Origin: Clostridia bacterium
GTDB lineage: Bacteria; Bacillota; Clostridia; UBA1212; DUPL01
Reading direction: 5' to 3'
Assembly: GCA_050951325.1 (NCBI GenBank)
Contig: JBMNIW010000001.1
Coordinates: 192,001-256,000, forward strand
DNA length: 64,000 nucleotides
Part shown: piece after piece, positions 6,753-29,950 of the stretch
Position numbering within the stretch: position 1 is the first letter of the stretch
How the letters are laid out: the number at the start of each line of letters is the position of its first letter
Position numbers and translations under genes: made by a program
The notes under the pieces: generated by a model
Database searches by the model: none
What the model was told of the DNA's origin: nothing
Seen by the model: the letters and a program-made list of their open reading frames with translations, nothing else

Positions 6753-6870
6753 TAAGCTCTCCTCTCCACCTATCCTTGTCCAATTGTCAATAATACATTA
6801 TCAAGTCTTATTGAATGGATGTAGCAAAAAAAGGCAAAAAATATTTAAATCGTGTCAAGCATTAATATTC

Positions 6871-8067
6871 CTACATATTTGCTATAAGGCCAAGTCTAAG
6901 GGTTTCGGATAGTAAATTATAGGAGTAATCCTGAGGCATTTTGAATATGTCGCCTAAAGAGAAAATGATTCTCTCTGCCATTTTGTAAAGGGTGCTGTCT
7001 TCTTTGAACAGCGCCTTTTGTAATTGCAGGATGCATACAAGTGCAATAGGAATTGCTTCTGCCATGCCCAGGTATGGAGAAAGAAAAACAAGAAGATTAA
7101 TAACAATCAGATAACCGGCAACCGTCAATTCACCAGTATTATCAAACATGTACTCAACAAGCCAGTAGCCTGCAAGAACAAGCACGGACAAAAAAACAAA
7201 AACGGCATTTCCCACACTGTCGGGCGCATCATCAACTTTCCTGCTAAGATCCCCTATGTACTGCTCTATTTTTCCTATCTTTCCATGAGCCACAAAATCT
7301 CCATCCAACACAATATTGTCCAATCTGTGCACGGTTACAAAGTTTTTGCCTTCCCAATTTGCTTTTACATATACTACCTCTCCCACAGGATTCAGTAAAG
7401 CCCCTATAAAACTCCATGTATAGTTGAACATGCGCTCCTGCATCCTTTCAATACCCCTTCTGTGCTCTTCCCTATTCAAATATTCATTACTGAAACCGGG
7501 TCCGTCAAAATTGGCACATATCTCAATAAAGTCATCGAGCCCGTACTTGTAAGATATTATGGCAAAATGAGAAGCCAGGTTTCCACCCAGCGAGTGCCCG
7601 GCAACTGCCATAGAGGTATATCTGTGTATGTATTTGGAATACGCTATCTGCCTTGCAAAATTCTCACACTCCTTTTGTTGGATGGTAATCTCACTGTTAA
7701 GAAGCATAAGATCTGCAAAAACCCAGTCTGCTATCCTGTGCCTGATTTCCGACATTGGCTCGCTTCCTCTAAGAGCGCAAACTATTCTTTGTTCATCAAG
7801 TTCAATGAGACAACCGTAAAACCCGGAAGAATGAGTAAAATCATTGTCGTTGTAATAGTCTACAAGCTTGTAGCTTCTAATGGCTCTCAAATCATCTTTG
7901 CTTACGTATTCCAGCAAGGACAAATCGGCAATATTGGACTTGCCAAGCAAATCCAATATCTCTCCTATTGATACGGGACCGCCTTCTGACAAAAAGTCAA
8001 AACCTTTATACAAATCCAGAAACGCAATAAATGAAGCGTACGCAAGCTCCCTATCGGTAAACGGCAT
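6871..8067 (-). CDS. Lipase / phospholipase of DUF2974 (Mbeg1-like) type with C-terminal membrane helices
   Basis: ALRGSE, GHSLGGNLA nucleophile elbow, FDGPGF, downstream His; likely start MPFTDREL at 8067. Confidence 0.7.
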   Translation of the reverse strand: MPFTDRELAYASFIAFLDLYKGFDFLSEGGPVSIGEILDLLGKSNIADLSLLEYVSKDDLRAIRSYKLVDYYNDNDFTHSSGFYGCLIELDEQRIVCALRGSEPMSEIRHRIADWVFADLMLLNSEITIQQKECENFARQIAYSKYIHRYTSMAVAGHSLGGNLASHFAIISYKYGLDDFIEICANFDGPGFSNEYLNREEHRRGIERMQERMFNYTWSFIGALLNPVGEVVYVKANWEGKNFVTVHRLDNIVLDGDFVAHGKIGKIEQYIGDLSRKVDDAPDSVGNAVFVFLSVLVLAGYWLVEYMFDNTGELTVAGYLIVINLLVFLSPYLGMAEAIPIALVCILQLQKALFKEDSTLYKMAERIIFSLGDIFKMPQDYSYNLLSETLRLGLIANM

Positions 8068-8071
8068 AAAA

Positions 8072-8623
8072 TCACCCAAACCTGAACTCAAACACAGGAT
8101 AAAACCTTCTCATAAAAGATTTATCCAAAAATCTTCTATTCTCATACGACAATGTGGTATAGTCATAGTAATTCAAAACAAAAACATCCAAGGTCAAGCT
8201 CCTGCCCAGTTGTGAAACAGACATTTCTATCCGCTTCTCAACTTCCTCTTTCGTCTGAAGATTATCCAATACAACAAGAATTCCATAGTATACGTCTTCC
8301 TTAAACAAGGTAATCTCTAGTCTTCCGACAATTCCATATTCATACAGATTAAAAAGAAGTGCCTTTTCCACTTCCCTTGCAGCATATGCTCGGATATAAC
8401 TGTCCTGGATGTTCTTCCTGTCTGCAATCACTTTAAAACATATTTTTGAATCGTCCCTTGCACAGCAAACGGCAACCACCCTGCCGCTTGCCATGTCGTA
8501 ATTGCCGATTGCCAGTACATCAAATTCCACATCATATTTCTCCCTCAACCTGTCAAGGATGAAGGAAGAAATATAATCAGTTATTTTCCCATCATGAATG
8601 CTGTTTAACACTTGCCCAATCAT
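8072..8623 (-). CDS. Hypothetical protein, possible partner or immunity protein of the lipase
   Basis: 183-aa ORF directly upstream of the lipase; LREKYDVEFDV ... DSY pattern. Confidence 0.5.
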   Translation of the reverse strand: MIGQVLNSIHDGKITDYISSFILDRLREKYDVEFDVLAIGNYDMASGRVVAVCCARDDSKICFKVIADRKNIQDSYIRAYAAREVEKALLFNLYEYGIVGRLEITLFKEDVYYGILVVLDNLQTKEEVEKRIEMSVSQLGRSLTLDVFVLNYYDYTTLSYENRRFLDKSFMRRFYPVFEFRFG

Positions 8624-8716
8624 ATACCATACCCAGGCACTTCTTTAATATAGGTTTATTCAAAAGATAAATAAAAATGACTGATAAAAAGAAAAAAAGC
8701 AAGGAATTTTCCCTGC

Positions 8717-9913
8717 TCATTCTCCATTTATCATGTTTTCATACAACTTATTGTATTTGTCCACAAGCTCTTCCAAGTCCAGTTGTCTGAAATCGTTTAT
8801 AAAATCTGATACCAGTTCAGTCATTAATGGATATTCATCCGGCAGCTTTTGGCCAATCTCCTCATATGTAAAATCGTACAACTCAACTATCTCAAGCTTG
8901 TTTATTGCAATTTTGGCCTCGTATGTTTCTCTCTTCAAATCATGAAATACATCGCTTAATAAAAGGCATATATAATTCTTGCACAAACTCGAAATCTTCT
9001 CATTGATACCACTCTCTACCATTCGAAGACATTCCAGAGAAAGGTCGCATGCAAATAGAACCACTTCCGCTCGGGCATTGTTGGAACCAACAATTCTATA
9101 TATCTTCACTAAAACATCTATCAGCAAAGACACATCCTCGTCCTGCATTACATTGTCCAGAACAAAGTGCAAAAGCTTGTCAAGGCAGTCCCCAGCCAGA
9201 GAAACATCGGATACTTCTTCATGCATGTATTTGATAAAATACCCCACACTATTTTCAAGCACATTTTTATTAATATAGTATTGGGCTATTATGAGATAAA
9301 CGTATGAGTATATAAGCTCATCATATCCATAATTATGCTTTATGTTATGTGCAGCAATACAATATGCTCTTTCGTATTTCCCCAGATGAACACATGCTTC
9401 AGCATACAGGTTAAGATACTCTACGTCCCTGTTCAAGGTTTTGTAGAGGGTTCTAAGGTATAAATAGGAAGTACTGTAGTTCCTCAGACAGTTATACGCA
9501 TACCCCAAAGAAAAAACAACATCGTTATCATCTGGATAATTCTCATAAAGCACAACCAATACATTAATGCTCTCTTGGGCCTGTCCAGTAAAACAATACA
9601 TTCGGGACAATACAAGCATTATCTCTCTTTGATCCGGGTAGTGTTTCAAACCCTCATTCAGAATATCAATTGCGATATGTGCATTCTTTTCTATATACTT
9701 TTTCAAGGAGCTCTGGATAATTTCACCAACTTCCAAAGGCACATCCAAAGAGTAATTATACAGCTTTCTGATAGTTTCTTTTGTCAATATATCAAACGCA
9801 AGTGAGATATCATTGTTTTTATTTGGTGACAGCATACAACGGGCCAAGGCAAGCTCTATTTCCTCTTTTGTTGCATCTCTTGATACATTAAGCAGTTCGT
9901 AGTAGTTTACCAT
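8717..9913 (-). CDS. J-domain-like plus TPR protein
   Basis: NYYELLNVSRDATKEEI ... ISLAFDILTKETIRKLYN J-like N-terminus followed by TPR-like helices; HPD motif absent. Confidence 0.6.
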   Translation of the reverse strand: MVNYYELLNVSRDATKEEIELALARCMLSPNKNNDISLAFDILTKETIRKLYNYSLDVPLEVGEIIQSSLKKYIEKNAHIAIDILNEGLKHYPDQREIMLVLSRMYCFTGQAQESINVLVVLYENYPDDNDVVFSLGYAYNCLRNYSTSYLYLRTLYKTLNRDVEYLNLYAEACVHLGKYERAYCIAAHNIKHNYGYDELIYSYVYLIIAQYYINKNVLENSVGYFIKYMHEEVSDVSLAGDCLDKLLHFVLDNVMQDEDVSLLIDVLVKIYRIVGSNNARAEVVLFACDLSLECLRMVESGINEKISSLCKNYICLLLSDVFHDLKRETYEAKIAINKLEIVELYDFTYEEIGQKLPDEYPLMTELVSDFINDFRQLDLEELVDKYNKLYENMINGE

Positions 9914-9939
9914 AGGACTCCTTTTCAATTTGTTTTAGT

Positions 9940-10968
9940 CTAGTTTCTCAATTCATCCTGTACATATTTAAGTCTTAATAATTTCTCCTTTACTTCTTCA
10001 ACGTCAAGCTGAACCGTATTGTTTGAATTAAACTCCGTAGCGATGCTTCTGTCGCTATCTCCTTTTGTAAAGTACTTGTCATAGTTGAGGTCCCTCTTGT
10101 CCACAGGCACCCGGTAGTAGTTGCCAAGGTCAATGCTGTTTGCACATTCCTCGCTGGTAAGAAGCGTCTCATACATCTTCTCGCCATGTCTGATACCGAT
10201 AATCCTTATTTCAGCATCAGAATTAAATATCTCCTTCACCGCCTGGGCAAGTACTCCAATCTTACATGCAGGAGCCTTTTGAACAAGAATATCACCGGAT
10301 TTTGCGTGCTGGAACGCATAAAGCACAAGTTCCACCGCCTCATCAAGACTCATTATAAATCTTGTCATGTTGGGTTCCGTCACAGTCAATGGACTGTTTG
10401 ATTTAATTTGGTCTATGAACAGAGGAATTACACTTCCTCTTGAACACATAACATTTCCGTATCTTGTGCAGCATATTGTGGTTTTTTCAGGACTCACGGT
10501 GCGGGACTTTGCCACCACCACTTTTTCCATCATGGCCTTGCTCATGCCCATGGCATTGATAGGATACGCAGCCTTGTCAGTAGACAGGCATATTACTTTA
10601 GAAACTCCTGCATCTATGGCAGCTGTCAGTACATTATCAGTGCCAAACACATTGGTTTTTACCGCTTCCAGCGGGAAAAACTCACAAGAAGGCACCTGCT
10701 TCAAGGCAGCGGCATGAAAAACGTAATCAACTCCATAAATAGCATACCTGATGGAAGACAGGTCCCTTACGTCCCCTATATAGAATTTGAGTTTGTGGGC
10801 AATTTCGGGATACAAGGCTGAATATTTATGCCTCATATCGTTTTGTTTTTTCTCATCCCTTGAAAATACCCTTATTTCCTTGATATCGCTATTAAGAAAC
10901 CTGTCCAGTACTGCATTTCCAAAAGAACCGGTTCCTCCAGTTATAAGCAGGGTTTTACCCTTGAACAT
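9940..10968 (-). CDS. fnlA: UDP-GlcNAc 4,6-dehydratase / 5-epimerase (FnlA/CapE/WbjB family)
   Basis: GGTGSFG, FSRDEKKQ, HAAALKQVPSCEFFP, STDKA, RYGNVMCSRGSVIP, GIRHGEK, RDLNYDKYF. Confidence 0.85.
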   Translation of the reverse strand: MFKGKTLLITGGTGSFGNAVLDRFLNSDIKEIRVFSRDEKKQNDMRHKYSALYPEIAHKLKFYIGDVRDLSSIRYAIYGVDYVFHAAALKQVPSCEFFPLEAVKTNVFGTDNVLTAAIDAGVSKVICLSTDKAAYPINAMGMSKAMMEKVVVAKSRTVSPEKTTICCTRYGNVMCSRGSVIPLFIDQIKSNSPLTVTEPNMTRFIMSLDEAVELVLYAFQHAKSGDILVQKAPACKIGVLAQAVKEIFNSDAEIRIIGIRHGEKMYETLLTSEECANSIDLGNYYRVPVDKRDLNYDKYFTKGDSDRSIATEFNSNNTVQLDVEEVKEKLLRLKYVQDELRN

Positions 10969-18600: not shown

Positions 18601-19845
18601 TTATTCAAAACGAAAAGAAAAGACTTTCATTTCTCTTCCTTCAAACATAAGCCACAAGGCTTTGACTCCTTCTGCCGATGCAACAGCATCAGTTTCAAAC
18701 CATTCAAACTCTGGAGAATCAACATCCACCGCTGCAAGCAACAGGTTATCATTCGTCTTTACGAGAATCCTTCCCTTTCCTTTTGTTTTTATGCAAAAAC
18801 GTCTTACACCATCCTTGAAATCCAGATACTTGTACTCCGCCCAGTCCTGTATCCAATTTCCGCCACCGCAGTTCACAAGTATTTCCTTTGAATCAAAGTA
18901 TGGTGCAATATATATGTTGCCTTTTACCCTGCATGCAATGGATGCATCAATCTCTTTGAATGCATCAATGGGACCGCCGGCACCCATCGATGTCATTTCA
19001 ACCTCATTGATGGTTCCATCTTCATTGAAATATATTTTCTCAACACACATTCTTCTTGAAGTAAAGCTATTTTGCGAGGACCGATGATAGAAAATATACC
19101 ACTGTCCCTTGAATTCTTCAATAGAACCGTGGTTGTTCCAGGTTTGTGGGTCACAGTACATATTGTCAATAATCACGCCGCCCTTTTTGTACGGACCCAA
19201 AGGCTTGTCAGACATTGCATAAGAAAGACACGTAGCCTTCCCTCTTGATATATCCGTATAGACGATATAATATATTCCGTTTCTTTTGCGCATGCATGCC
19301 CCTTCATGGAATCCATGTTCCTGCTCTGTTAGAATCGCTGTCTGAAGACTGTCCATATCCAAAGTAGACATGTCATCATTCAACTTTGCTCCCCTTAAGT
19401 TGAACTGGCCCCATAAATAGTATGCCTGTCCGTCATCATCAACAAAAACTGCTGGGTCAATACTGTCTCCATCAGCACCTTTTACTGGTTTTGCGTCCCC
19501 AAAAGGCCCGTAGGGCTTGTCGGATACTGCAACAGCTTCAAAGTTGTCCTGCCCGCAAACATATAGATAATATTTTCCGTCCTTATGAATTGCATCGGGA
19601 GCGTACAAAGGAGTACCTTTGCTCCAATATATGCCAGGCTCTTCTTTGGTATTCTTGAATGATATACCGTGGTATGTCCAGTTTGTCAAAGTTTCGTCCT
19701 CCGTTGAGAAGACATGATACTCATGACCGCAGTATTCCTTTTTGCCGGATATGTCGGTGGAACCGTAGAGATACAACCTTCCATCCGGCATGACATGGGC
19801 TTCACCATCTGCAATAAAGAACGGTCTTGGCAATATGGGATTCAT
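18601..19845 (-). CDS. GH43 glycoside hydrolase with C-terminal CBM6-like domain
   Basis: ADGEAH, YAPD, IDPAVFVDDDG, FHEG, NNHGSI, YHRS. Confidence 0.85.
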   Translation of the reverse strand: MNPILPRPFFIADGEAHVMPDGRLYLYGSTDISGKKEYCGHEYHVFSTEDETLTNWTYHGISFKNTKEEPGIYWSKGTPLYAPDAIHKDGKYYLYVCGQDNFEAVAVSDKPYGPFGDAKPVKGADGDSIDPAVFVDDDGQAYYLWGQFNLRGAKLNDDMSTLDMDSLQTAILTEQEHGFHEGACMRKRNGIYYIVYTDISRGKATCLSYAMSDKPLGPYKKGGVIIDNMYCDPQTWNNHGSIEEFKGQWYIFYHRSSQNSFTSRRMCVEKIYFNEDGTINEVEMTSMGAGGPIDAFKEIDASIACRVKGNIYIAPYFDSKEILVNCGGGNWIQDWAEYKYLDFKDGVRRFCIKTKGKGRILVKTNDNLLLAAVDVDSPEFEWFETDAVASAEGVKALWLMFEGREMKVFSFRFE

Positions 19846-19878: not shown

Positions 19879-21045
19879 TTATACCAAATTGTTTACCACT
19901 TTGTTGAGCTTTTCCGTCATCAAAAGCATCAAAACTGCAAAAACAGCAAGATAAAAAGGATAAAATCCAATATTGACATAATCTGCGATAAGACCAAACA
20001 AAGGAGGCATGAATGTACTGCCCACGTATGCGCTAGCCATCTGTATTCCTATGATTGCCTGAGAATTTTCCTTTCCGAAGTTGGAAGGCGTTGAGTGTAT
20101 TATGGCAGGGTAAATAGGAGCACATCCAAGACCTGCAACAACAAGACCTACTAAAGAAAGCACACTGGAGAAAGGAAGAGCAATCATCAAAACCCCAAAC
20201 ATGCAAACAATTATCCCACTTCTAATCATAAGCCTGTCTCCAACCCTGTTGGATACAAACCCGCTTATAAACCTACCTATTGTAATTCCAAGAAAGAACA
20301 TGGACGCAAAGGTTGCAGCAGTCTCTGCATTCACATTTCTGCACTCAACAAGATAACTGCTGGCCCATAGTCCTGCTGTTGATTCAAGAGCGATGTAACT
20401 GAAGAAGCCTACCAGTATAAGTTTTACACCCTTTATCCCCACAGCTTCCTTAATGGTGATATGGCGGCCATTTGCTGCTTTGTCCTTCATTGCCTGACCG
20501 TTCTTTCTCCAAAGAGGAAAACTTGTAAACAGAAACGAGGCTATGACTATCTGTATGACAGATACAGTCAGATATCCTTTCGAGTATCCGAAACCTCTTG
20601 TAAGGCAGAAACCCATTATATATGGACTAATGGTTGCTCCCACACCCCAGAAACAATGCAGATGGTTCATATGTCTTGAGTTGTAGTAAAGAGCCACATA
20701 GTTGTTCAAGGCAGCGTCCACGGCACCCGCCCCAAGACCATATGGTATTGCAAAGATGCAGAGAAGTATGAATGATTTCGTTATGGAAAACCCAAAAAGT
20801 GCAACTGCCGTCATCAGGACACTGACAGAGGTTACAAAATAGGTTCCAAACCTTCTTGTGACTCTGTCAGACATAAGGCTTGACACAATAGTGCCGCCTG
20901 CAATAATCATTGTCACAATGCCTGCATATGACATGGGTACGTCAAGTTCATGATACATAACAGGCCATGCTGACCCAAGCAGTGAATCAGGCAGGCCAAG
21001 GCTAATAAAAGCAATGTATATTATAACCAACAATAGTGAAAACAT
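19879..21045 (-). CDS. MFS transporter
   Basis: About 12 hydrophobic segments; SLGLPDSLLGSAWP, GAVDAALNNYV. Confidence 0.85.
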   Translation of the reverse strand: MFSLLLVIIYIAFISLGLPDSLLGSAWPVMYHELDVPMSYAGIVTMIIAGGTIVSSLMSDRVTRRFGTYFVTSVSVLMTAVALFGFSITKSFILLCIFAIPYGLGAGAVDAALNNYVALYYNSRHMNHLHCFWGVGATISPYIMGFCLTRGFGYSKGYLTVSVIQIVIASFLFTSFPLWRKNGQAMKDKAANGRHITIKEAVGIKGVKLILVGFFSYIALESTAGLWASSYLVECRNVNAETAATFASMFFLGITIGRFISGFVSNRVGDRLMIRSGIIVCMFGVLMIALPFSSVLSLVGLVVAGLGCAPIYPAIIHSTPSNFGKENSQAIIGIQMASAYVGSTFMPPLFGLIADYVNIGFYPFYLAVFAVLMLLMTEKLNKVVNNLV

Positions 21046-21094
21046 AAGAACTCCTGATTAAAAATAATAACCTGTATATTCTACCATAAAAACA

Positions 21095-21787
21095 TTATAT
21101 TCGCGGAATAGGAATTGAGTTTATTCTTTTTCCGTATTTGTCAAAAAGAGATATTACAACTTTATCGGATACACTTCCTCTTAAAGTTTCAAAATTAAAG
21201 TATGAGCATTTCTCAAGAGTATCTATACCAAAATCAAGCACCACACCTTCCCAGTTTCCCAACTCGTTCAAACGCCACAGATAAATGGGCTCCTTGACGG
21301 ATGGACGAAATGTTCTCATCATCTCTTCATAATCCGCATATGCACCCCTTGTTAAGACATAGCATTCATCCTTATGGAAAATGGCACTATAAGGTTTTTC
21401 ATAATACATCCATTTAGGCGTCCACAAAACCAAAGGCTGGCTAGTGATGTTATCAAAATATATTTCAAGTCTGGCGTAATCATTATAATAATCATATTCA
21501 CCCTTCATAATTAAGGACGAATACTCATCCATGGCAAGAAGGTACCTCTCCGTAATGACATTTTTAAATGAAGGTTCTGGCGTTGTTTGGTTTGTTGACT
21601 GCGTAGGACTATTTGAGAGAATCTCGTTGTCATCTTCATTCTTAAATAACAAAAAGACACACAAAAACACAAGTAATACAAAAATTGATATTACCCATGT
21701 ATATCTGGATTCCTTTATACCAGTCTTTATTTCATTTTCCTCAGTCTCTTCGCCGATTACAACATTCTCATCAAACTCGTTGTCCAT
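21095..21787 (-). CDS. Hypothetical single-pass membrane protein
   Basis: Acidic N-terminus, one TM helix, S/T/P linker, extracellular domain. Confidence 0.6.
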   Translation of the reverse strand: MDNEFDENVVIGEETEENEIKTGIKESRYTWVISIFVLLVFLCVFLLFKNEDDNEILSNSPTQSTNQTTPEPSFKNVITERYLLAMDEYSSLIMKGEYDYYNDYARLEIYFDNITSQPLVLWTPKWMYYEKPYSAIFHKDECYVLTRGAYADYEEMMRTFRPSVKEPIYLWRLNELGNWEGVVLDFGIDTLEKCSYFNFETLRGSVSDKVVISLFDKYGKRINSIPIPRI

Positions 21788-22103
21788 GCAAATCCTTCTC
21801 TTTCTTTATTTCCTGCGATGCAACACCATCCGGTTTCTTTACTACATCATCCATATCAAGACATACACCCTGCATCAAAAAGGAAGTCGGAGTGGGAACG
21901 GGCATTTCCGTTTCACTGATAATCGTTGGCGTTGGAGAGCTAATTAAAACATTGTCCTTGTTATCCTTTTAAAAAAGTATTAAAACAAGAATAATAAATA
22001 GACAAACAAAAACAGATACAACCCAGGACCTTTTAGTTCCCTTAATACCTGTTTTAATCTCACTATCTTCATTTTCTCCACCAATTACAATATCCTCACT
22101 CAT
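21771..22103 (-). pseudogene. Short paralog of the 21095..21787 N-terminus with in-frame TAA at 21969-21971
   Basis: MSEDIVIGGENEDSEIKTGIKGTKRSWVVSVF aligns with ENVVIGEETEENEIKTGIKESRYTWVISIF; frame continues after TAA with a PT-rich linker. Confidence 0.55.
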
Positions 22104-22187
22104 TTTCAACGTTCCCTTATGGTAACCAAAACCTTATCACCTTCATTTTGCCAAACCCTGCATACATATTTTATCACAGTTTTCTTA

Positions 22188-22733
22188 TCAATGCAGTATT
22201 CTTTTCACACGAAAACTGCCAACCATCAAAAAAGACAACAAAATTGTCTGCAATACAAATACAAGGACAAACATATTTGAAAATTCCTGTGAAACAAAAC
22301 TATGTATGAAAAGCGTGCTTGCAGTTATGAAACCTGCAGCTGTAATCGGGAGCCCTTTGAAGAACCTGTAATCATCCTGAAGGTTGTATCTTGCAAGACG
22401 AAAAGCACCTGCCAGAGGATACATGACAAGTACAAAAAGGACATACCAGGAAGGTTCCTCTATACGCGACATGAATATTGAAATTGGCGCAACACCAAAA
22501 GTTACAAAGTCAGCAAAACTATCAAGCTGCCTTCCCAATTCCGATGTGGCATTCAAATGTCTGGCAAGAAAACCATCCAAGGAATCAAAAATTACTGCCA
22601 AATAAATCAAAAGACAGGCAAGTCTTGTGCCTGTAACAGAATTACTGCGCATCATAGTAAGTATGACAAGTACACCCACTGCCATATTCGAAAATGTAAG
22701 CATGTTAGGAACATGTTTGGTTTTTTGGAACAT
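22188..22733 (-). CDS. pssA: CDP-diacylglycerol--serine O-phosphatidyltransferase-like
   Basis: PNMLTFSN, DSLDGFLAR ... GRQLDSFADFVTFG CDP-alcohol phosphotransferase motif, RLARYN, FKGLP. Confidence 0.8.
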   Translation of the reverse strand: MFQKTKHVPNMLTFSNMAVGVLVILTMMRSNSVTGTRLACLLIYLAVIFDSLDGFLARHLNATSELGRQLDSFADFVTFGVAPISIFMSRIEEPSWYVLFVLVMYPLAGAFRLARYNLQDDYRFFKGLPITAAGFITASTLFIHSFVSQEFSNMFVLVFVLQTILLSFLMVGSFRVKRILH

Positions 22734-23700
22734 TCTTTTTTCTTTCTCCAATTTTCCATCCTCCAATATACAGAAGACTCAGCAATATAACGAACCAGAA
22801 GGTGATAAACCTGAAAATAAGCGTAATTGCCAAAGCTTCGTTTTTCTCAATTTGCATTAATACAAGCAGGCTTGTCATTGCAGTTTCAAACCCACCCAAT
22901 CCTCCCGGCATCAGCGGTATCATTCCTACCATGTAGGAAATGAAAGTAATCTCGGTTAGGAATACCCAATTATATTCCGCTGTAAATAAATTTACAAGCA
23001 ATATCATTTTCAAAGGGTAAATAATCCATATTGCAAAGGAAAGAAGAAACTGTTTATACATCTCCCCCTTTATGCTTTTTAAAACCTTGATATTCCTCAA
23101 AAGAACCATCATATATTTATGCAGTGCAATGCTTGCTTTTCTCTTTGGTTTTCTTTTCTTAACCTTGTTTTCCAGTATATTGGTTCCAACAAACATAATT
23201 ACAAGAAGTCCAAGGAATGTTAACAAGAAGAGAAACACGACAACTCTGACAAAACCTTGAAATATTGCCACTTTGCCTGACAAATGGGCAAATGCAAAAA
23301 GGTTTATCACAAAGAAACTGAAAAAGCTGACCATTTTCTGAATTGTAACCAGTGTTGCGGCTTCCTGATAAGAATAGTTCATCTCGCTCTTCAAAAGATA
23401 AGCCCTTGTAACTTCTCCTCCAAGCTTTACTCCAGGAGTAATACTCTCCATTATCATGCCTCTTGCATTAATATAAAGCATCTTAAAGAAGTCGTTTTCC
23501 TTATTCATCACCTTTCCAATCCTGCACCACTGGTAATTAACAAGAAGCTGACTAACAACCTGAATTAAAAGAAGACCAATAATTCCTAAAACAGGTACTT
23601 TCCTAATACTATCTACAAAACTTTTTAAATCAAATGTCAGAATCAATATGACAAATAAAAAAAGGAGTACGACATACCCTGTTCTTCTTACTACCCTCAT
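22705..23700 (-). CDS. Lysylphosphatidylglycerol-synthase-TM (flippase-like, UPF0104) membrane protein
   Basis: ITPGVKLGGEVTRAY, PGGLGGFE, FRFITFW; RBS AAGGAG before ATG 23700. Confidence 0.8.
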   Translation of the reverse strand: MRVVRRTGYVVLLFLFVILILTFDLKSFVDSIRKVPVLGIIGLLLIQVVSQLLVNYQWCRIGKVMNKENDFFKMLYINARGMIMESITPGVKLGGEVTRAYLLKSEMNYSYQEAATLVTIQKMVSFFSFFVINLFAFAHLSGKVAIFQGFVRVVVFLFLLTFLGLLVIMFVGTNILENKVKKRKPKRKASIALHKYMMVLLRNIKVLKSIKGEMYKQFLLSFAIWIIYPLKMILLVNLFTAEYNWVFLTEITFISYMVGMIPLMPGGLGGFETAMTSLLVLMQIEKNEALAITLIFRFITFWFVILLSLLYIGGWKIGERKKNVPKNQTCS

Positions 23701-23713
23701 CCAAATACTCTCC

Positions 23714-24274
23714 TTAATAGATGATGAAAAGCGCCGTACTGTCAATATTTCTAAAAAGATGATTTGCCCTGCTGTTAAAGGCATTGAACACCGTCAGGTC
23801 ATGCACATTGTAAGTATGGGACAAATGTTTTTTAGGTATGCGTACCAGTATCTTTGAGCCAAGTTTGCATTTTTGTTTCATGCAGCTGAACACCTTGTCA
23901 AGAGGACTTACCTGCACCGCCATGTGAATAACAGTGTAGTCTTCAGGACAGATGTCGCTACCATCGCCATGATAAATCTTAATGGAATCCTCATATCCCA
24001 GTTTCCTGACAAGCTGTTTCGAAACTTCTACACAGCACTCGTCATTATCTATGATTGTTACATGAGCTTTTGTATGCTCATGCAACAATATTCCGCTAAA
24101 AGGACAAGGTCCTCCTCCAACACACAAAATCCTGTCATTCTCATTTATATCAGCAAGCCTTATCTCCTTGTTCACAATCCTTTTGTAATACAAGGCAAGG
24201 ACATTGTATACAACTTTGTTTCTTGCAGCCAGGCATTCAAGTTTCTTTGTGGTTCTTTGTATCAAGCCTGCCAT
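23714..24274 (-). CDS. Nicotianamine-synthase-like SAM-dependent enzyme (Rossmann domain only)
   Basis: E..LADINENDRILCVGGGPCPFSGILL ... IIDND ... GDG ... MAVQVSP..KVF ... ILVR resembles the NAS/CntL SAM domain (GxGPLPxT). Confidence 0.65.
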   Translation of the reverse strand: MAGLIQRTTKKLECLAARNKVVYNVLALYYKRIVNKEIRLADINENDRILCVGGGPCPFSGILLHEHTKAHVTIIDNDECCVEVSKQLVRKLGYEDSIKIYHGDGSDICPEDYTVIHMAVQVSPLDKVFSCMKQKCKLGSKILVRIPKKHLSHTYNVHDLTVFNAFNSRANHLFRNIDSTALFIIY

Positions 24275-24287
24275 AACAATCCCTCAT

Positions 24288-26069
24288 TTATATAATCAGT
24301 TGTGCTACTTGATTGATAAGTCCGGCGACTGTAAATGCACTTACAACTGTAGACAGCCCTATGGTTATAGCCACCTTTGGACCAAACTCTTTTGTCAGGA
24401 TTCCAAACACCGACAAGCAGGGCAGGTACAATAGCGCAACCGTTCCGCCTACAAAGGCTTGAAGTGCTGTCAAACCTTCAATAGCCAGCAGTGGTGCAAC
24501 AGCCATTTCCCTGCGGACTATACCAAGGATCAGTGCAATAACAGCATCCTTTGGAAGACCAAGCCATCCACTTACAATTGGCTCTAGATATACCGCTATA
24601 AAATCAAGAAGTCCTGTTTCCTTAAGCAGCGCTGCAATAACTATGGATATGAGCATGGGGACTTCCGCATCTACAAGGAAGCCTTTCATTCTTATCATGA
24701 GTTTCTTTCCAAAAGCCTTGCCGTTTGGCATAAGCAGGTTCGGTATCTCAATTACCATCGGATCTACTTTTCCTTTAAGCGTGCGGCTTAAAATAAAGGA
24801 TACTACAAACATAATAAAAAACGACAAAAGGAGCATGAGTATAAGCAGTATGGGCGAAAAGTTCGCAAACAGACTGATTAGCGCTCCGGTTTGGGAGATG
24901 CATGGTACTGCAAAACACACAACAGTGGAAATTATAAGGCGTTCCTTCTTCGTTGTGGCGGTTCTTGAACCGATAATTGCAGGCACCGCACACCCATATC
25001 CAAGAAGGATTGTAATCATGCTGCCACCCTGTATGCCCATCTTCCTCATAATATTGTCAAAGAGAACACTGAGTCTTGGCAATACACCCGAATCCTCAAG
25101 AAAAGAAAACACCACATAAAACAAAAAGACATAAGGAAGAATCAGGGCAATAATCCACTCAAAGGCAATCTTGAATATTCCAAAGTCTCCAACCAGCACA
25201 TTTAGAAGTATTCCTTCAGGCACAAAAGCCGAGAAGAGTTTGTGAAACAAGGGAACAAGCACATTGTTTACCAAAGGAAGCAAAGCTACTGCCCTAAGAG
25301 CTTTTCCTCCACCAACAATGGCTCCCAAAGACGCAACAATTACAATCAGCGCAATGGGTATACCCGGCCAGGGCTTTATCATGTTGTCTCCCAGTCTGTC
25401 AAGAAAGCTTGGTTTGCCGTTTGTTTTCGTCCTAACTTTCGAAGTTATTTCCTTTGCCCTGTCCCATTCATTCAGACTTTCACCTATGCAATTTGGACAA
25501 ACTTCACAACCTCCGCAATCAAAAGCCTTTTCGGGATCCTTTATAACCTTCTTCAACTCATCTATAAGTTTGTCAATACCTTCACCCTTAACAGCAACCG
25601 TAGGGACTACGGGAGCCCCAAGCTCCTGGGACAAAAGATTCACATTAACTTCAGTACCATGGCGTTTTGCCACATCCAAAAGGTTTAGCGCATATACTAT
25701 GGGTACATTGTATTTTTTAAGCTCAAGACCCAGTTTAATATTCCTCTCAAGGTTCGTAGCATCAAGAACACAAATGACAGCAACAGGATTGCTGCACATA
25801 AAACCTACAGCTACAGCTTCCGCTTCGCTTGTTGCTTCCAATGAATATGTTCCTGGTACGTCTATCAGGGTATAAGTTTCATCATCAAGTTTGATTGTTC
25901 CTTCAGTATATGTAACCGTTGTGCCGGCATAGTTTGAACTTACTACATTGATTCCAGTGAGATGTGAAAAGAATACGCTCTTTCCTACATTAGGGTTGCC
26001 CATTAAAAGAATTTTATTGGGCTTGTTATACACATTTACATCCTCATTAATATCATGACAACTTGCCAA
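24288..26069 (-). CDS. feoB: Ferrous iron transporter FeoB (short form)
   Basis: GNPNVGKS, NYAGTTV, DVPGTYSL, DATNLERN, LEDSG, GYGCAVPA, PCISQ, YLPC. Confidence 0.9.
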   Translation of the reverse strand: MASCHDINEDVNVYNKPNKILLMGNPNVGKSVFFSHLTGINVVSSNYAGTTVTYTEGTIKLDDETYTLIDVPGTYSLEATSEAEAVAVGFMCSNPVAVICVLDATNLERNIKLGLELKKYNVPIVYALNLLDVAKRHGTEVNVNLLSQELGAPVVPTVAVKGEGIDKLIDELKKVIKDPEKAFDCGGCEVCPNCIGESLNEWDRAKEITSKVRTKTNGKPSFLDRLGDNMIKPWPGIPIALIVIVASLGAIVGGGKALRAVALLPLVNNVLVPLFHKLFSAFVPEGILLNVLVGDFGIFKIAFEWIIALILPYVFLFYVVFSFLEDSGVLPRLSVLFDNIMRKMGIQGGSMITILLGYGCAVPAIIGSRTATTKKERLIISTVVCFAVPCISQTGALISLFANFSPILLILMLLLSFFIMFVVSFILSRTLKGKVDPMVIEIPNLLMPNGKAFGKKLMIRMKGFLVDAEVPMLISIVIAALLKETGLLDFIAVYLEPIVSGWLGLPKDAVIALILGIVRREMAVAPLLAIEGLTALQAFVGGTVALLYLPCLSVFGILTKEFGPKVAITIGLSTVVSAFTVAGLINQVAQLII

Positions 26070-26074
26070 GTAAA

Positions 26075-26341
26075 CTACCTCCTTACCATTATTCTCTCTG
26101 CTATGTCCTTGCCAAGGGCAATATCGCTGGAGTCCACCTTGATAAGTACCGGGCCTCCAAGTCTGTGAGTCATAACTTTGTAAACCGATGCATTCTCAAC
26201 TATACCCAAGCTTTTTAGAATAGCAAGCCCGGGTGCCTTCGTAATGGTATATTGGTAATTATCCGGGGCATGGTAAATACTTTGATTCTGCAAATCCGGC
26301 TTCTGTCCATGTCCATGTCTGCGCCTAAACCTGTTTCTCAT
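26075..26341 (-). CDS. feoA: FeoA-domain protein
   Basis: LKSLGI ... LGGPVLIKVDSSDIALGKDIAERIMV; directly upstream of feoB. Confidence 0.85.
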   Translation of the reverse strand: MRNRFRRRHGHGQKPDLQNQSIYHAPDNYQYTITKAPGLAILKSLGIVENASVYKVMTHRLGGPVLIKVDSSDIALGKDIAERIMVRR

Positions 26342-26376
26342 TCGTCATCTTCCCTTCACATTAGCACATTAAAAAA

Positions 26377-26471
26377 GTTAGGTTCTTCTAACATGTATAT
26401 TATTAGCACAGAGCGTATAAGATGTCAATATGAAAAAGGGCATAATTCACAATATTTTTAGATTTGTCTAA
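26377..26471 (-). promoter_or_regulatory. Sigma-A promoter of the feo operon with two DtxR/MntR-like palindromes
   Basis: TTGACA (26423-26428, minus) -17 bp- TAATAA; boxes TTAGGTTCTTCTAA (26378-26391) and TTAGATTTGTCTAA (26458-26471). Confidence 0.6.
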
Positions 26472-26554
26472 CAAATCTTCTCAAAAGAACACAATAGTAT
26501 TTTTCACAAAAATATAATATAATTGACATACATTACAGGAAGGAAGGTGAAACA

Positions 26555-27908
26555 ATGAAAACTAAAGCATTGGCATGCATGGCTCTTGCATTAATGTACC
26601 TGACCCTACTTTTTTCAGGTATTAATGCTGCAGTTTTAGATATTGATGGTGAAGAGGCTACCATTAACATATCGAGTAAAAATCTGAAACCGCTTAAAGA
26701 AGAAACAATCTCAATAACGATCCCAAACTATTCCGACAAACTTACAGTCACCGTTACCGACGCAGTAGGCGTAGAGTACGTAAACGAAGAAGTTCTGTCA
26801 GAGAATGGAGTTTACACATTGAAATTTTTGCCAAGAGGCAAGGCAGGAACACATACTATCACTATTACAAAGACAAATGGAGCATCCGCCAGCTATACTA
26901 TAAAAATGCTGGCTGACACAACTGTCGAGACAGAAAATGATTACTTCAACAAATTGTTTGAACACTATAAAACGACAATAACACAAGGCCAGTCCAGACA
27001 TAATTTGCAGAAAATGAATTTCAAAGTAAACAACATATGGTTAAGAGACCACATTCATATGATGAAAGCTGCCAAGTATTTTGACAATGATGTACAATCT
27101 GGACTTGACTTCTTCATCATGAACCAGACCGAGGAAGGCTTCTACTACGAGATTATTGTAAACAGTCAGGATATACACACCACTTTTGTAAAAGGTGACT
27201 GCCTCAAACCAATAAATGCATCAACCACGTTGATAAGGCTTGAGATTGAAGCGGATATTGAATACTTGATGGCCGAAGCCATTTACCAGGCATGGAAAGC
27301 AACCGATGATCTTGAATGGCTGAAAGAAGTTTTGCCAAGCCTTGAAAAAGCACTTAATTACTATCTTGTAAGCGACAAGCGATTTGACCCAGGCACAGGC
27401 CTTATCAAACGAGGAGTATCCATTGATACATGGGACTGGATTTACGGCCAAAAGGGGCTGGACCGCAACAGAATGATAGAAGAAGACTCACCAATGGCAA
27501 TATTCCACGGAGACAATACCGGATTCTATCAGGCATGCATCATGATTTCGGAAATGTACCGTGCAGCAGGCGATGAATCAAATGCAGAAAAGTGGGAAAA
27601 CACCGCAAAAGACATACGCATAAAGCTCATGGACATTGCATGGAACGGAAACTTCTTTTCCCATATGGTACATATACGGCCGACAGTGGAAGAGGTAACC
27701 GATGCTTTGTGGAAAGTAGACTTTGAAGGAGATAAAGACAGGCTCAGCCTAAGCAATGCTTATGCACTAAACAGAGGAATTTTGACACAGCAGGAAGCAA
27801 GCAAGATAATTGAGACATACCTTGAACTAAGGAACAACCCTCCTCCAACGGAAACAAATCCAGACAAGAAGTATTATGCTGAATGGGTTACTCTCTACCC
27901 TTCCTACC
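26555..27908 (+). pseudogene. Secreted six-hairpin-glycosidase-like protein, 3' end truncated by IS
   Basis: Signal peptide; WLRDHIH, EADIEY, DTWD, GDNTG; last residues (LKLCVAKASRF) are read from the IS right-end hairpin. Confidence 0.6.
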
Positions 27909-28080
27909 TGAAACTCTGCGTGGCTAAAGCCAGCAGGTTCTAACGTACTTTCCAACTTCTGCACTAACCCGAAAGTATAGTGCCACTAATTGGTTTCCGT
28001 TAGACTTTTACCACCAATTGTTCCTACGAACAAATTAACGGTAGTTTAGGCTCGTTTCAAAACCCATTATATAAACTCAT
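27909..28080 (-). ncRNA. Putative omega/reRNA scaffold of TnpB
   Basis: ~170-nt structured non-coding segment between the tnpB stop and the right end, the established location of TnpB guide RNA scaffolds. Confidence 0.6.
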
Positions 28081-29534
28081 ATTACATTCTTTAATGCTTG
28101 TCTTACTTCACTATTATTTAATCTTTCAATTTCTTTATCATGTAGTATTTTAAACCTCTCAAAATCTCGTTTACATTCTTCTTGATTAATATTGCATAAA
28201 TCATCGTTAACGTGCTGTATTAAAAATGCACTATATAAATCCCTTTGTATTTTAATGCCGTTTAAATCATTCCAACGTTGACTTAATTTTTTCTTATTAT
28301 ATCTGCAATTCAAATGATTATATTGGCTTGCTTTTACTTCTTTAGTATTAACTTTTATAAGTTTTTCACCAAAATATTTTAATTTATTGTCTAGTATGGT
28401 TAATAATTTTGCTGGTGCTTTATTGGCTAAACTTTTACCAAACCGTTTCTTACGTTTAAATTTACCTTTATCGTTCTTTTCAGTTTTCTTGTTTCGTTTC
28501 TGCAATCCTTTAAAATTCATTTCTTCAACTTTTATCTTATTACCGAGAGATAATATATAATTACTTAATAATTGGTGTTGATATTCTCTTACGTCTGCTT
28601 GTTTTCTATATAATTCTCTTAGTTTGTTCTGTGCTTTAATATATCTATTAGATTTGACCCATTTAAGTTTACCTTTTTTTATTGTACCATCTTCATTAAA
28701 ATTATCAGGATTATTAGCACGTCTGCTTCTATCCATATACCTCAAAATTCTACGCTTTTCTTTTTCAATATTATTTACTCTATCGGCTAATTCTAATAAT
28801 TTTACATCTACATTTGATACTATTGCTATTGTTTGAGTACCAATATCTAACCCCACTGTACCATTTCCTATATGTCTTTTAACCTCACCATCTTTATTTA
28901 TCTTCATAGGAGGTACACCTTTGAATACTATTTGAAGATAATATTTGTATTTACCTTTTATAAATCTACGTTTAATTCTACAATAGCATATTTCATCTTT
29001 TAGTGCTTGGTACTCATAAGGATTATTATAATCTATTTTTACAGATATTTTTAACCCATTCCATATAAGAAAACCATCTTTAAATCTTATGCCTGTTTTA
29101 TTGCTTTTACCTTCAAGAGAATCTAATTCTCCATATTTTTTGAAGTGTACTATTTCACCATCTCCAAACAATAAATCTTCAAATGCACTCCATACTCTTG
29201 TTGCTATTTTTTGTGCTGTGAAACTATCTATATTTTCCGAGAAATGATGTTGCATTTCTTGTATATCTTCATGTAGTGAATATTCATTGAGCCTATATTG
29301 CTTATACATTTCATTTAATTGCTTATATAATAGTTTCTTCTCTTTTTCATTTGCATTATTAATTTGCTCCTTTAACTGCCTATATTTTTTAGTTTCAATC
29401 ATAGATTTATAACGTTTATATGCTTTAGATAATACAGCATTGTATAATTGTCTGCTAATTTCAAAACGCTTATTTAAAATAGTTTCTTGATACTTTTCAG
29501 TTATTAATGGAAATGTTACACAATATCGACTCAT
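28077..29534 (-). CDS. tnpB: RNA-guided endonuclease TnpB (long 485-aa type)
   Basis: RuvC I GLDIG, RuvC II VEEMNF, RuvC III QRDLYSAF; YYLQIVFKG. Confidence 0.88.
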   Translation of the reverse strand: MSRYCVTFPLITEKYQETILNKRFEISRQLYNAVLSKAYKRYKSMIETKKYRQLKEQINNANEKEKKLLYKQLNEMYKQYRLNEYSLHEDIQEMQHHFSENIDSFTAQKIATRVWSAFEDLLFGDGEIVHFKKYGELDSLEGKSNKTGIRFKDGFLIWNGLKISVKIDYNNPYEYQALKDEICYCRIKRRFIKGKYKYYLQIVFKGVPPMKINKDGEVKRHIGNGTVGLDIGTQTIAIVSNVDVKLLELADRVNNIEKEKRRILRYMDRSRRANNPDNFNEDGTIKKGKLKWVKSNRYIKAQNKLRELYRKQADVREYQHQLLSNYILSLGNKIKVEEMNFKGLQKRNKKTEKNDKGKFKRKKRFGKSLANKAPAKLLTILDNKLKYFGEKLIKVNTKEVKASQYNHLNCRYNKKKLSQRWNDLNGIKIQRDLYSAFLIQHVNDDLCNINQEECKRDFERFKILHDKEIERLNNSEVRQALKNVI

Positions 29535-29551
29535 AAATATTCACCACCTTT

Positions 29552-29950
29552 CTATACGTTTTTTTGATTTTCTATATATTTTTGTATTGTTTCTTCTGAA
29601 ATATATCCTATAGTGCAACAAAAATAACTTCGTGTCCAAAGAGAAGGTATTCTACTTCTTAACTCTGGATATTTATTTCTTAATATCCTACTACTTGTTC
29701 CTTTAAAATATCTTATTAATTCATGCAGTGGTTGTCGTGGGTCAAAACTTATAAACATATGAACATGGTCGGGCATTATTTCTAATGCTTTTATTTCAAC
29801 ATTCTTTTCTTTTGCAATATCATAAAATATTTGTCTTAAATCTTTTTCAATATTACCAACCAATACTTTCCTTCTATATTTAGGACAAAACACTATATGA
29901 TATTGGTTAAGATATACAATACCTTCTTTGTGTATATATTTATCATTCAT
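29552..29950 (-). CDS. tnpA: IS200/IS605 Y1 transposase
   Basis: YHIVFCPKYRR, HUH motif DHVHM, LWTRSYF, catalytic Tyr in KYIENQ. Confidence 0.95.
   Translation of the reverse strand: MNDKYIHKEGIVYLNQYHIVFCPKYRRKVLVGNIEKDLRQIFYDIAKEKNVEIKALEIMPDHVHMFISFDPRQPLHELIRYFKGTSSRILRNKYPELRSRIPSLWTRSYFCCTIGYISEETIQKYIENQKNV

Follow-up and report, generated by a model that had tools for sequence, protein, structure and literature searches.

How ferrous iron is supplied to the Feo system and handled there has, to our knowledge, long been an open question, and we know of no chelator that has been tied to Feo. A 64,000-nucleotide stretch of DNA from an anaerobic-digester bacterium of the Clostridia (assembly GCA_050951325.1, contig JBMNIW010000001.1, positions 192,001 to 256,000; referred to here as the window) raised this question in a specific form. 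Namely, at positions 22188..26341 it carried the feoA and feoB genes together with genes for a protein resembling nicotianamine synthase (NAS), a flippase-like membrane protein and a PssA-like phosphatidylserine (PS) synthase. We refer to the latter three genes and their products as NASL, FLIP and PSSA, respectively. What could a relative of metallophore enzymes and two lipid proteins do in an iron uptake operon? The answer that we favored, with a probability of roughly 0.45, was that the operon is iron-repressed and combines the FeoAB importer with a module that would add aminocarboxypropyl to PS, so that a chelating lipid would be flipped outward for FeoB.

A recurrent gene order with its own FeoB and a putative operator

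All five genes were located head to tail on the minus strand. The feoA gene (26075..26341) encoded an 88-aa protein in which the Pfam FeoA domain (40.4 bits) occupied residues 41-87, and its N-terminal extension was basic and His/Arg-rich. It was followed by feoB (24288..26069, 593 aa), NASL (23714..24274, 186 aa), FLIP (22705..23700, in an open reading frame (ORF) reaching to 23784; 331 aa from the preferred start) and PSSA (22188..22733, in an ORF reaching to 22766; 181 aa from the preferred start). The likely starts of the last two genes were read from the DNA: AAGGAG was present 8 nt upstream of the FLIP start at 23700, and GGAG was present upstream of the PSSA start at 22733. With these starts, the intergenic gaps were 5, 13 and 13 nt, plus one 29-nt overlap. 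The best sigma-70-like promoter of the 21000-27000 region (26399..26428, minus strand; TTGACA, 18 nt, AATAAT; 11/12 matches) was just upstream of feoA. Thus, the locus did consist of five co-oriented and tightly packed genes behind a single promoter, as stated in a preliminary description that had been made from the letters of the DNA; the promoter is a strong one. A terminator scan revealed nothing convincing 3' of PSSA, and the hairpins listed by it fell within coding sequence.

A scan with the NASL alignment, in which one genome was kept per species, produced 75 loci, and all counts given below are conditional on the presence of NASL. The other genes were located by tblastn with the five proteins of the window; a locus was considered assessable for a gene if its contig offered enough DNA. 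A cassette-type FeoB was encoded directly upstream of NASL in 72 of the 75 loci, and feoA was upstream of feoB in 63. FLIP was found downstream of NASL in 64 of the 71 assessable loci, and PSSA was present in 51 of 68. The complete five-gene order was observed in 45 of the 75 loci, and in four others FeoAB-NASL occurred with FLIP and PSSA not adjacent. In the 42 fully resolved loci the intergenic gaps were mostly between -4 and +40 nt. Since the same order recurred in 45 complete copies with similarly tiny gaps, this packing was not due to chance. The preliminary description had called for a conservation search and had named a lack of conservation as grounds for abandoning its proposal; the cluster turned out to be conserved.

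When 1,021 ORFs from the 75 loci were clustered, FeoA, FeoB, NASL and FLIP/PSSA were each found in 53-71 loci. The next ORF cluster was present in 14 loci, as was a DtxR-family cluster, and all the others were present in at most 8, i.e., the flanks were not conserved. None of the conserved clusters corresponded to a CntM-like dehydrogenase, an MFS/EamA exporter or an ABC chelate importer. The carriers were mostly Clostridia-type metagenome-assembled genomes (MAGs) from digesters and termite guts. Additional carriers were Tissierellia, Peptococcaceae, a Treponema MAG, Desulfitispora, Salipaludibacillus and two Methanimicrococcus archaea, and among the lineages listed the five-gene order was also present in Christensenellales and Defluviitaleaceae. 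Three carriers of the FeoAB-NASL-FLIP form are available in culture, namely Methanimicrococcus hongohii Hf6, Desulfitispora alkaliphila DSM 22410 and Salipaludibacillus aurantiacus S9. The cassette is accessory: an orthologue of NASL was found in none of the 59 relatives of the window's genome, which produced just five weak partial matches (E 1e-5 to 5e-4).

In the three loci without FeoB directly upstream of NASL, FeoA-FeoB was located just downstream (L075), FeoA was present alone (L038), or neither was found (L046). The first of these, from a 'Candidatus Izimaplasma' MAG, was rearranged (6758-10538): one NASL copy shared a strand with PSSA, and the opposite strand carried another NASL copy together with FeoA and FeoB; an apparent FeoB-NASL fusion at this locus was rejected as an artefact of gene order. 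In Methanimicrococcus hongohii (L051, 5275-5967) an IS1595-type transposase gene was inserted between feoA and feoB. One MAG (L040, 5577-6155) had an ORF for an Rce1-like CAAX protease between feoB and NASL. Several loci seemed to be missing NASL as a result of ORF picking, where an over-long ORF hid the gene; tblastn recovered it.

The FeoB protein of the cassette had a G domain (FeoB_N, 159.6 bits), Gate motifs (96.7 bits in two stretches) and FeoB_C (35.5 bits), and scored 305.3 bits against TIGR00437, below the cut-off of 315.65. It lacked the helical domain after the G domain, and its linker was about 80 residues shorter than in the two canonical FeoBs encoded by the same genome (3.08 Mb, 96% complete). 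The identity to these two was 27%, compared to 40-81% (median 58%) for the cassette FeoBs of other taxa and 55-56% for the archaeal ones. As judged from these alignments, the cassette FeoB is a distinct short subfamily. Many of its members carried a Cys-rich linker, CGGCEVCPNC in the window (25488..25517, minus strand; FeoB residues 185-194). Of 66 cassette FeoBs, 41 had CxxCxxC and 28 had all four Cys of the CxxCxxCPxC pattern; this linker was absent from the two canonical FeoBs of the window's genome.

A putative operator of the DtxR family, the exact 16-bp palindrome GTTAG-N6-CTAAC, was located between the -10 element and feoA (26377..26392). An imperfect copy with one mismatch, TTTAG-N6-CTAAC, was found upstream of the -35 element (26457..26472). 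These were the two sites with at most one mismatch in the 64-kb window, a count not above chance (shuffle mean 1.33). Of 64 regions preceding feoA, 38 contained the strict palindrome, where 0.04 were expected from shuffles; the 42 control stretches inside feoB contained none. The window's genome contained four exact palindromes: one at feoA, one about 100 nt upstream of a DtxR-family gene and two in the promoter region of a FecCD-type permease. This genome-wide number was not enriched (4 vs 7 for the reversed control). Since the counts were at the chance level, it is the placement of the sites that is informative. Genes of the DtxR family adjoined the cassette in 14 loci, and the operator-preceded DtxR-family protein of the window's genome was 42% identical to the repressor adjoining the cassette in other species. 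Metal regulation, which had been assumed in the preliminary description, was therefore supported by a conserved operator common to the cassette and a DtxR-family gene, and the cassette is probably repressed by a metal sensor of this family. The window's genome had three DtxR-family genes (C5:58270-58443, C5:58928-59389 and C8:107366-107551), one of which immediately preceded a canonical feoB of 719 aa.

Contigs from RNA libraries of four biogas/digester studies matched all five genes with at least 99% identity. Counting a junction as bridged if a contig had at least 31 letters on each side, feoA-feoB was bridged in 4/4 runs, feoB-NASL in 3/4, NASL-FLIP in 1/4 and FLIP-PSSA in 3/4. Among the contigs listed for the four runs, none extended upstream beyond 26377, a weak hint that the transcript started near this position. 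The contigs left holes (e.g., 23078-23231), from which no inference was drawn.

The NAS-like protein and the lipid genes

The family of NASL was not obvious from curated models, since the protein scored below their cut-offs: 19.8 bits vs 27.1 for Pfam NAS (PF03059) and 36.3 vs 350 for NCBIfam CntL (NF033601; E 3.6e-9). Some relatives did pass the Pfam NAS cut-off (P0063 with 38.2, P0072 with 32.4 and P0094 with 39.3 bits). In a library clustered at 50% identity, thresholds of E<=1e-30 and E<=1e-10 gave 131 and 769 representatives of the family, respectively. It has no named model in Pfam or NCBIfam, and public records label relatives 'SAM-dependent methyltransferase' or 'protein-L-isoaspartate O-methyltransferase', SAM being S-adenosylmethionine.

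A search of the NASL family profile against all PDB sequences gave a different picture. The best match was MtNAS, the thermonicotianamine synthase of Methanothermobacter (4e-16), followed by CntL (2e-10), and the best methyltransferase had an E-value of 1.6e-4. The comparison of structures was based on an alignment-based model of NASL with a predicted local distance difference test score of 88, for which Foldseek placed MtNAS and CntL at or near the top. VIA-align superimposed 184 of the 186 residues on MtNAS residues 69-264 (Z 21.1, root-mean-square deviation 2.5 A). The match to CntL covered its residues 72-263 (Z 19.2), and generic methyltransferases reached Z of at most 17.1 with fewer residues aligned. 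Thus, in the comparison with NAS structures that the preliminary description had recommended, MtNAS and CntL came out as the nearest solved relatives, and the possibility it had raised against itself, a plain methyltransferase, agreed with neither sequence nor fold.

The residues of the active site pointed in the same direction. NASL E13 was paired with the catalytic Glu of CntL (E84), and this stretch of the match was lost when the chain with the E84Q mutation was used; Y30 was paired with Tyr107 of MtNAS. Since the first residue of the model corresponded to MtNAS residue 69, E13 fell at MtNAS Glu81. According to the part of a review available here, Glu81 and Tyr107 deprotonate the acceptor amine (PMC10491745). 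Conservation was calculated for the window's protein together with those of the best 150 cluster representatives that were 170-230 aa long (124 sequences). E13, Y30, G53, G55, P58 and R145 were conserved in 125/125 of these sequences, and E37 in 124/125. Based on this evidence, NASL is predicted to be a SAM-dependent aminocarboxypropyl transferase.

The preliminary description had also stated that the usual N-terminal domain was lacking, which was partly correct. The equivalent of MtNAS residues 1-68 was indeed missing, leaving NASL without the complete two-domain architecture, and the family was uniformly short; what was gone was not a whole domain, as the helices bearing the catalytic residues were retained. 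Since its scores do not reach the curated cut-offs and the first ~68 residues are missing, we filed NASL as a separate short subfamily. The profile and fold matches indicate that it is a true relative within the NAS/CntL superfamily, being neither NAS nor CntL itself. The proteins of this family were basic (median pI, the isoelectric point, of 9.1; net charge +6 in the first 42 residues), which is consistent with a peripheral membrane enzyme. The truncation may open the acceptor site, and both features are consistent with a membrane substrate. One representative (P0094), found in the exhaustive profile search, was a NASL-NASL-FeoA fusion; a word-based search for longer, fused forms of NASL found nothing, which is weak evidence.

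The PSSA protein (CDP-OH_P_transf, 80.9 bits) had the full CDP-alcohol motif, D-x2-D-G-x2-A-R-x8-G-x3-D-x3-D, in which D50, D53, G54, A57, G67, D71 and D75 were invariant among 33-34 sequences. Its nearest solved relative was the PS synthase of M. jannaschii (MjPSS, E 1.5e-24), ahead of PgsA (6.6e-8). The equivalents of MjPSS Ser63, Arg101 and Arg104 were retained as S72 and R112, both invariant, and R115, conserved in at least 90% of the sequences; the position of MjPSS Ala59 was occupied by Lys or Arg. The roles of Ser63, Arg101 and Arg104 in the serine site and the Arg network are described in the portion of PMC8633023 consulted here. The closest models were those of pssA and archaetidylserine synthase. 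Since the score was below the equivalog cut-off (TIGR00473, 99.1 bits vs 107; 92-106 for the cassette genes of five other genomes), we called the protein PssA-like, and serine is its probable substrate.

The window's genome contained no second PssA-like gene and no PS decarboxylase within its 96% completeness; two PgsA-type enzymes were present. In all five other cassette genomes, the best pssA match was the cassette gene itself, as checked by coordinates. A PS decarboxylase (Psd) was found in one of these five, beside a separate pssA paralogue; their completeness was not established. Given that PSSA was the sole PssA-like gene of the window's genome and that a PS decarboxylase was not found there, its PS product looks dedicated to the cassette rather than a precursor of bulk lipids.

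FLIP corresponded to a full-length membrane domain of the MprF type. The match to PF03706 (LPG_synthase_TM) covered positions 7-301 of 302 with 141 bits (cut-off 33.4), and the TIGR00374 score was 110.6 bits, above the cut-off of 43.2. The protein ended after the membrane domain and had no fused aminoacyl-phosphatidylglycerol synthase domain (NF033480, 29.2 bits vs 600). We considered it a putative lipid flippase. Moreover, four of the five genomes whose NASL locus lacked FLIP encoded a strong FLIP elsewhere (E 1e-87 to 1e-106), and among 39 relatives of the window's genome that lack NASL, none had FLIP at E<=1e-10. By these searches, FLIP tracks NASL at the genome level. Two of the four unlinked FLIP genes, from Defluviitaleaceae MAGs, adjoined genes of YibE/F-like membrane proteins (L096, 2450-3649; L097, 315-1529). 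Another one was convergent with a second NASL copy (L095, G061:C11, 974-2334), away from the FeoAB-NASL-DtxR locus of the same genome (L060). In one MAG (L009), FLIP and PSSA were fused in frame; a word-based search for FLIP fusions of at least 581 aa found nothing, again weak evidence. Complex prediction for FLIP and PSSA with NASL as the partner gave a score of 0.00; it was run without controls and bears neither way.

A proposed chelating lipid and its alternatives

The reading that we favored starts from the conserved gene order, the family membership of the proteins, the retained catalytic residues, the common operator and the apparently dedicated PS synthase. PSSA would produce PS from cytidine diphosphate-diacylglycerol and serine in the cytoplasmic leaflet. 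With SAM as the donor, NASL would then attach at least one 3-amino-3-carboxypropyl group to the serine amine, and the modified headgroup would be a nicotianamine-like polydentate chelator. FLIP would move the modified lipid to the outer leaflet, where it would capture Fe(II) at the cell surface and pass it to the cassette FeoB. We infer PS as the acceptor, the number of groups, metal binding, the direction of flipping and the hand-over to FeoB. A more specific version is conceivable and, in our opinion, doubtful. In this version, the product would belong to a new phospholipid class, PS with two aminocarboxypropyl units, i.e., a lipid-anchored analogue of thermonicotianamine. Displayed on the outer leaflet by an MprF-type flippase, it would act as a non-diffusible metallophore that delivers Fe(II) to the cassette's own FeoB. 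This would be a new way of acquiring metal in habitats that are sulfidic and anoxic, and the unit would have moved between bacteria and archaea.

Several points weigh against a chelating lipid. In the portion of the literature covered, the characterised NAS/CntL enzymes use free amino acids or their own intermediates, not lipids. PSSA was missing beside the cassette in 17 of the 68 assessable loci and FLIP in 7 of 71, so PS made in cis is not a universal requirement. The NASL-NASL-FeoA fusion puts NASL on the cytoplasmic side of FeoB, an arrangement that fits a function inside the cell no less than one in lipid modification. The RNA libraries may contain DNA, and their contigs are no proof that the five genes form one transcript. 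Within the flippase family, flipping has been established for MprF only, and its direction and substrate in the cassette are guesses. A surface chelator must also release Fe(II) to FeoB, and we know of no mechanism for that. The metal itself is uncertain: Mn is another metal sensed by regulators of the DtxR family, and the part of PMC8749426 consulted reports Feo clusters of Firmicutes that group with a Mn(II) transporter. Finally, the lipid chemistry was deduced from sequence.

Known systems are similar to individual parts of the cassette. The Cnt systems for opine metallophores such as staphylopine, pseudopaline and yersinopine (CntL, CntM, the exporter CntE and the importer CntABCDF) also place a NAS-family transferase, whose catalytic E84 aligns with NASL E13, in a metal-regulated uptake operon. 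However, NASL is about 90 residues shorter than CntL, and the cassette has no conserved CntM, exporter or ABC importer, its partners being FeoAB, FLIP and PSSA. Among the NAS enzymes of plants and fungi (PF03059) and Methanothermobacter, MtNAS (3FPE/3FPG/3FPJ/3O31) was the best sequence and fold match, but NASL lacks the equivalent of its residues 1-68 and has an entirely different genomic context. MprF, the lysyl-phosphatidylglycerol synthase/flippase, pairs the same PF03706 membrane domain with an enzyme by which a phospholipid headgroup receives a group derived from an amino acid, as proposed for NASL, and the FLIP-PSSA fusion resembles its flippase-plus-synthase layout. In contrast to MprF, the cassette has no aminoacyl-tRNA-dependent synthase; the modification would be SAM-based, and its role would be metal capture rather than charge repulsion of cationic peptides. 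Canonical FeoABC systems likewise have FeoA and a FeoB with the G domain, Gate and FeoB_C, and metal-responsive control is a probable further likeness. The cassette differs from them in having no FeoC and a short FeoB without the helical domain, often with the Cys-rich linker. Mycobactin and the amphiphilic marine siderophores demonstrate that a lipophilic, cell-bound iron chelator can work, although mycobactin-type molecules are products of nonribosomal peptide and polyketide synthases for Fe(III) and not phospholipid headgroups linked to Feo. According to the part of PMC10491745 consulted, BtaA moves an aminocarboxypropyl group from SAM to a lipid, like the proposed NASL step, on the way to the betaine lipid DGTS (diacylglyceryltrimethylhomoserine); however, it is not homologous to NAS/CntL, and its product is not a chelator.

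The best surviving alternative, which we consider unlikely, is a soluble chelator. NASL would act on a free amino acid and SAM, and the resulting nicotianamine-like molecule would buffer or chaperone Fe(II) inside the cell or be exported, with FLIP and PSSA serving a separate adjustment of the membrane. The free amino acid substrates of the characterised enzymes speak for it, as do the four loci where NASL stayed beside FeoAB without adjacent FLIP and PSSA, and the P0094 fusion ties NASL to FeoA, the cytoplasmic partner of FeoB. Yet with a soluble product, a dedicated PS synthase and FLIP would be left without a role, even though they were present in 51/68 and 64/71 assessable loci, and FLIP follows NASL across genomes. 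The CntM-like dehydrogenase, exporter and chelate importer were not conserved in the loci either. Moreover, the N-terminal residues of MtNAS help enclose a small-molecule chamber, and these ~68 residues are the ones missing in NASL.

A lipid that is modified and does not chelate was rated somewhat lower still. Here, the modified PS would be an annular or charge-tuning lipid required for the function or regulation of this FeoB subfamily. The linkage and the lipid enzymes argue for it equally as for the chelating lipid. In addition, the cassette FeoB, being distinct and devoid of the helical domain that follows the G domain, might rely on other partners. However, an aminocarboxypropyl transferase of a metallophore family would be an odd choice for mere charge tuning. 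In the portion of the review covered, the products named for the NAS/CntL family are metal chelators or their precursors (PMC10491745).

A methyltransferase activity of NASL, with PS or another amine as the acceptor, is improbable. In its favor, both kinds of enzyme have the Rossmann SAM fold, weak Pfam methyltransferase matches were obtained (E ~1e-3), and the public records carry such names. Against this stand the profile search (4e-16 and 2e-10 vs 1.6e-4), the alignment of the whole chain with MtNAS 69-264 (Z 21.1 vs at most 17.1) and the NAS catalytic Glu and Tyr, invariant in 125/125 sequences. Slightly less credible is a modification of a protein amine, e.g., of FeoA or FeoB, which would create a chelating side chain. 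The truncation of NASL may open its acceptor site, a NASL-FeoA fusion exists and the adjacency to FeoB (72/75) was the most conserved feature, but FLIP and PSSA would be left unexplained and we know of no precedent in the NAS family. The notion that a feo operon and an unrelated lipid operon are neighbors by coincidence, in favor of which there is no more than the independent existence of each gene family, was refuted by the 45 complete copies in distant taxa with unconserved flanks.

The novelty seems to concern the system as a whole, which looks undescribed, each component belonging to a known superfamily. No description of such a cassette was found in a literature search of titles and abstract starts, with subscription-only papers outside its scope. 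In the main Feo evolution survey (PMC8749426), the terms nicotianamine, methyltransferase, flippase and phosphatidyl had no occurrences, and in a preprint on nicotianamine-like metallophores (bioRxiv 10.1101/641969) the same was true for Feo, Clostridi, archaea and N-terminal. In this conserved and probably iron-controlled module, FeoB is combined with an enzyme of a metallophore family and with the synthesis and flipping of a phospholipid, which makes the chelating lipid a testable hypothesis. If true, it would mean a new class of phospholipid and a new type of acceptor for NAS-family enzymes. It would also give the communities of anaerobic digesters, termite guts and similar places an alternative to siderophores that is not secreted. 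With a soluble product, too, the cassette would be the first case of a pathway for a chelator being linked to Feo.

Neighboring genes

Directly downstream of the cassette, a 230-aa ORF (21095-21787, minus strand) had no Pfam or NCBIfam match. This ORF and a downstream MFS gene were rejected as members of the cassette, being unmatched in the 75 loci except for one MFS match (L068). One RNA-library contig extended from PSSA past 22000 toward the 230-aa ORF.

The cassette was flanked by glycoside hydrolase (GH) genes, namely GH43 (18601-19845) and a protein with an MGH1-like GH domain and a signal-like N terminus (26555-27943), which fits a polysaccharide-degrading digester organism. Further upstream, the 28077-29950 region (minus strand) contained the gene of an IS200-type Y1 transposase (132 aa; Pfam Y1_Tnp, 144 bits) and, after it, an ORF of 485 aa without a Pfam match at E<=0.001. 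Both were located within an island of 27% GC, about 1.7 kb from the feo promoter, and may represent an IS200/IS605-like element whose large ORF was missed by Pfam.

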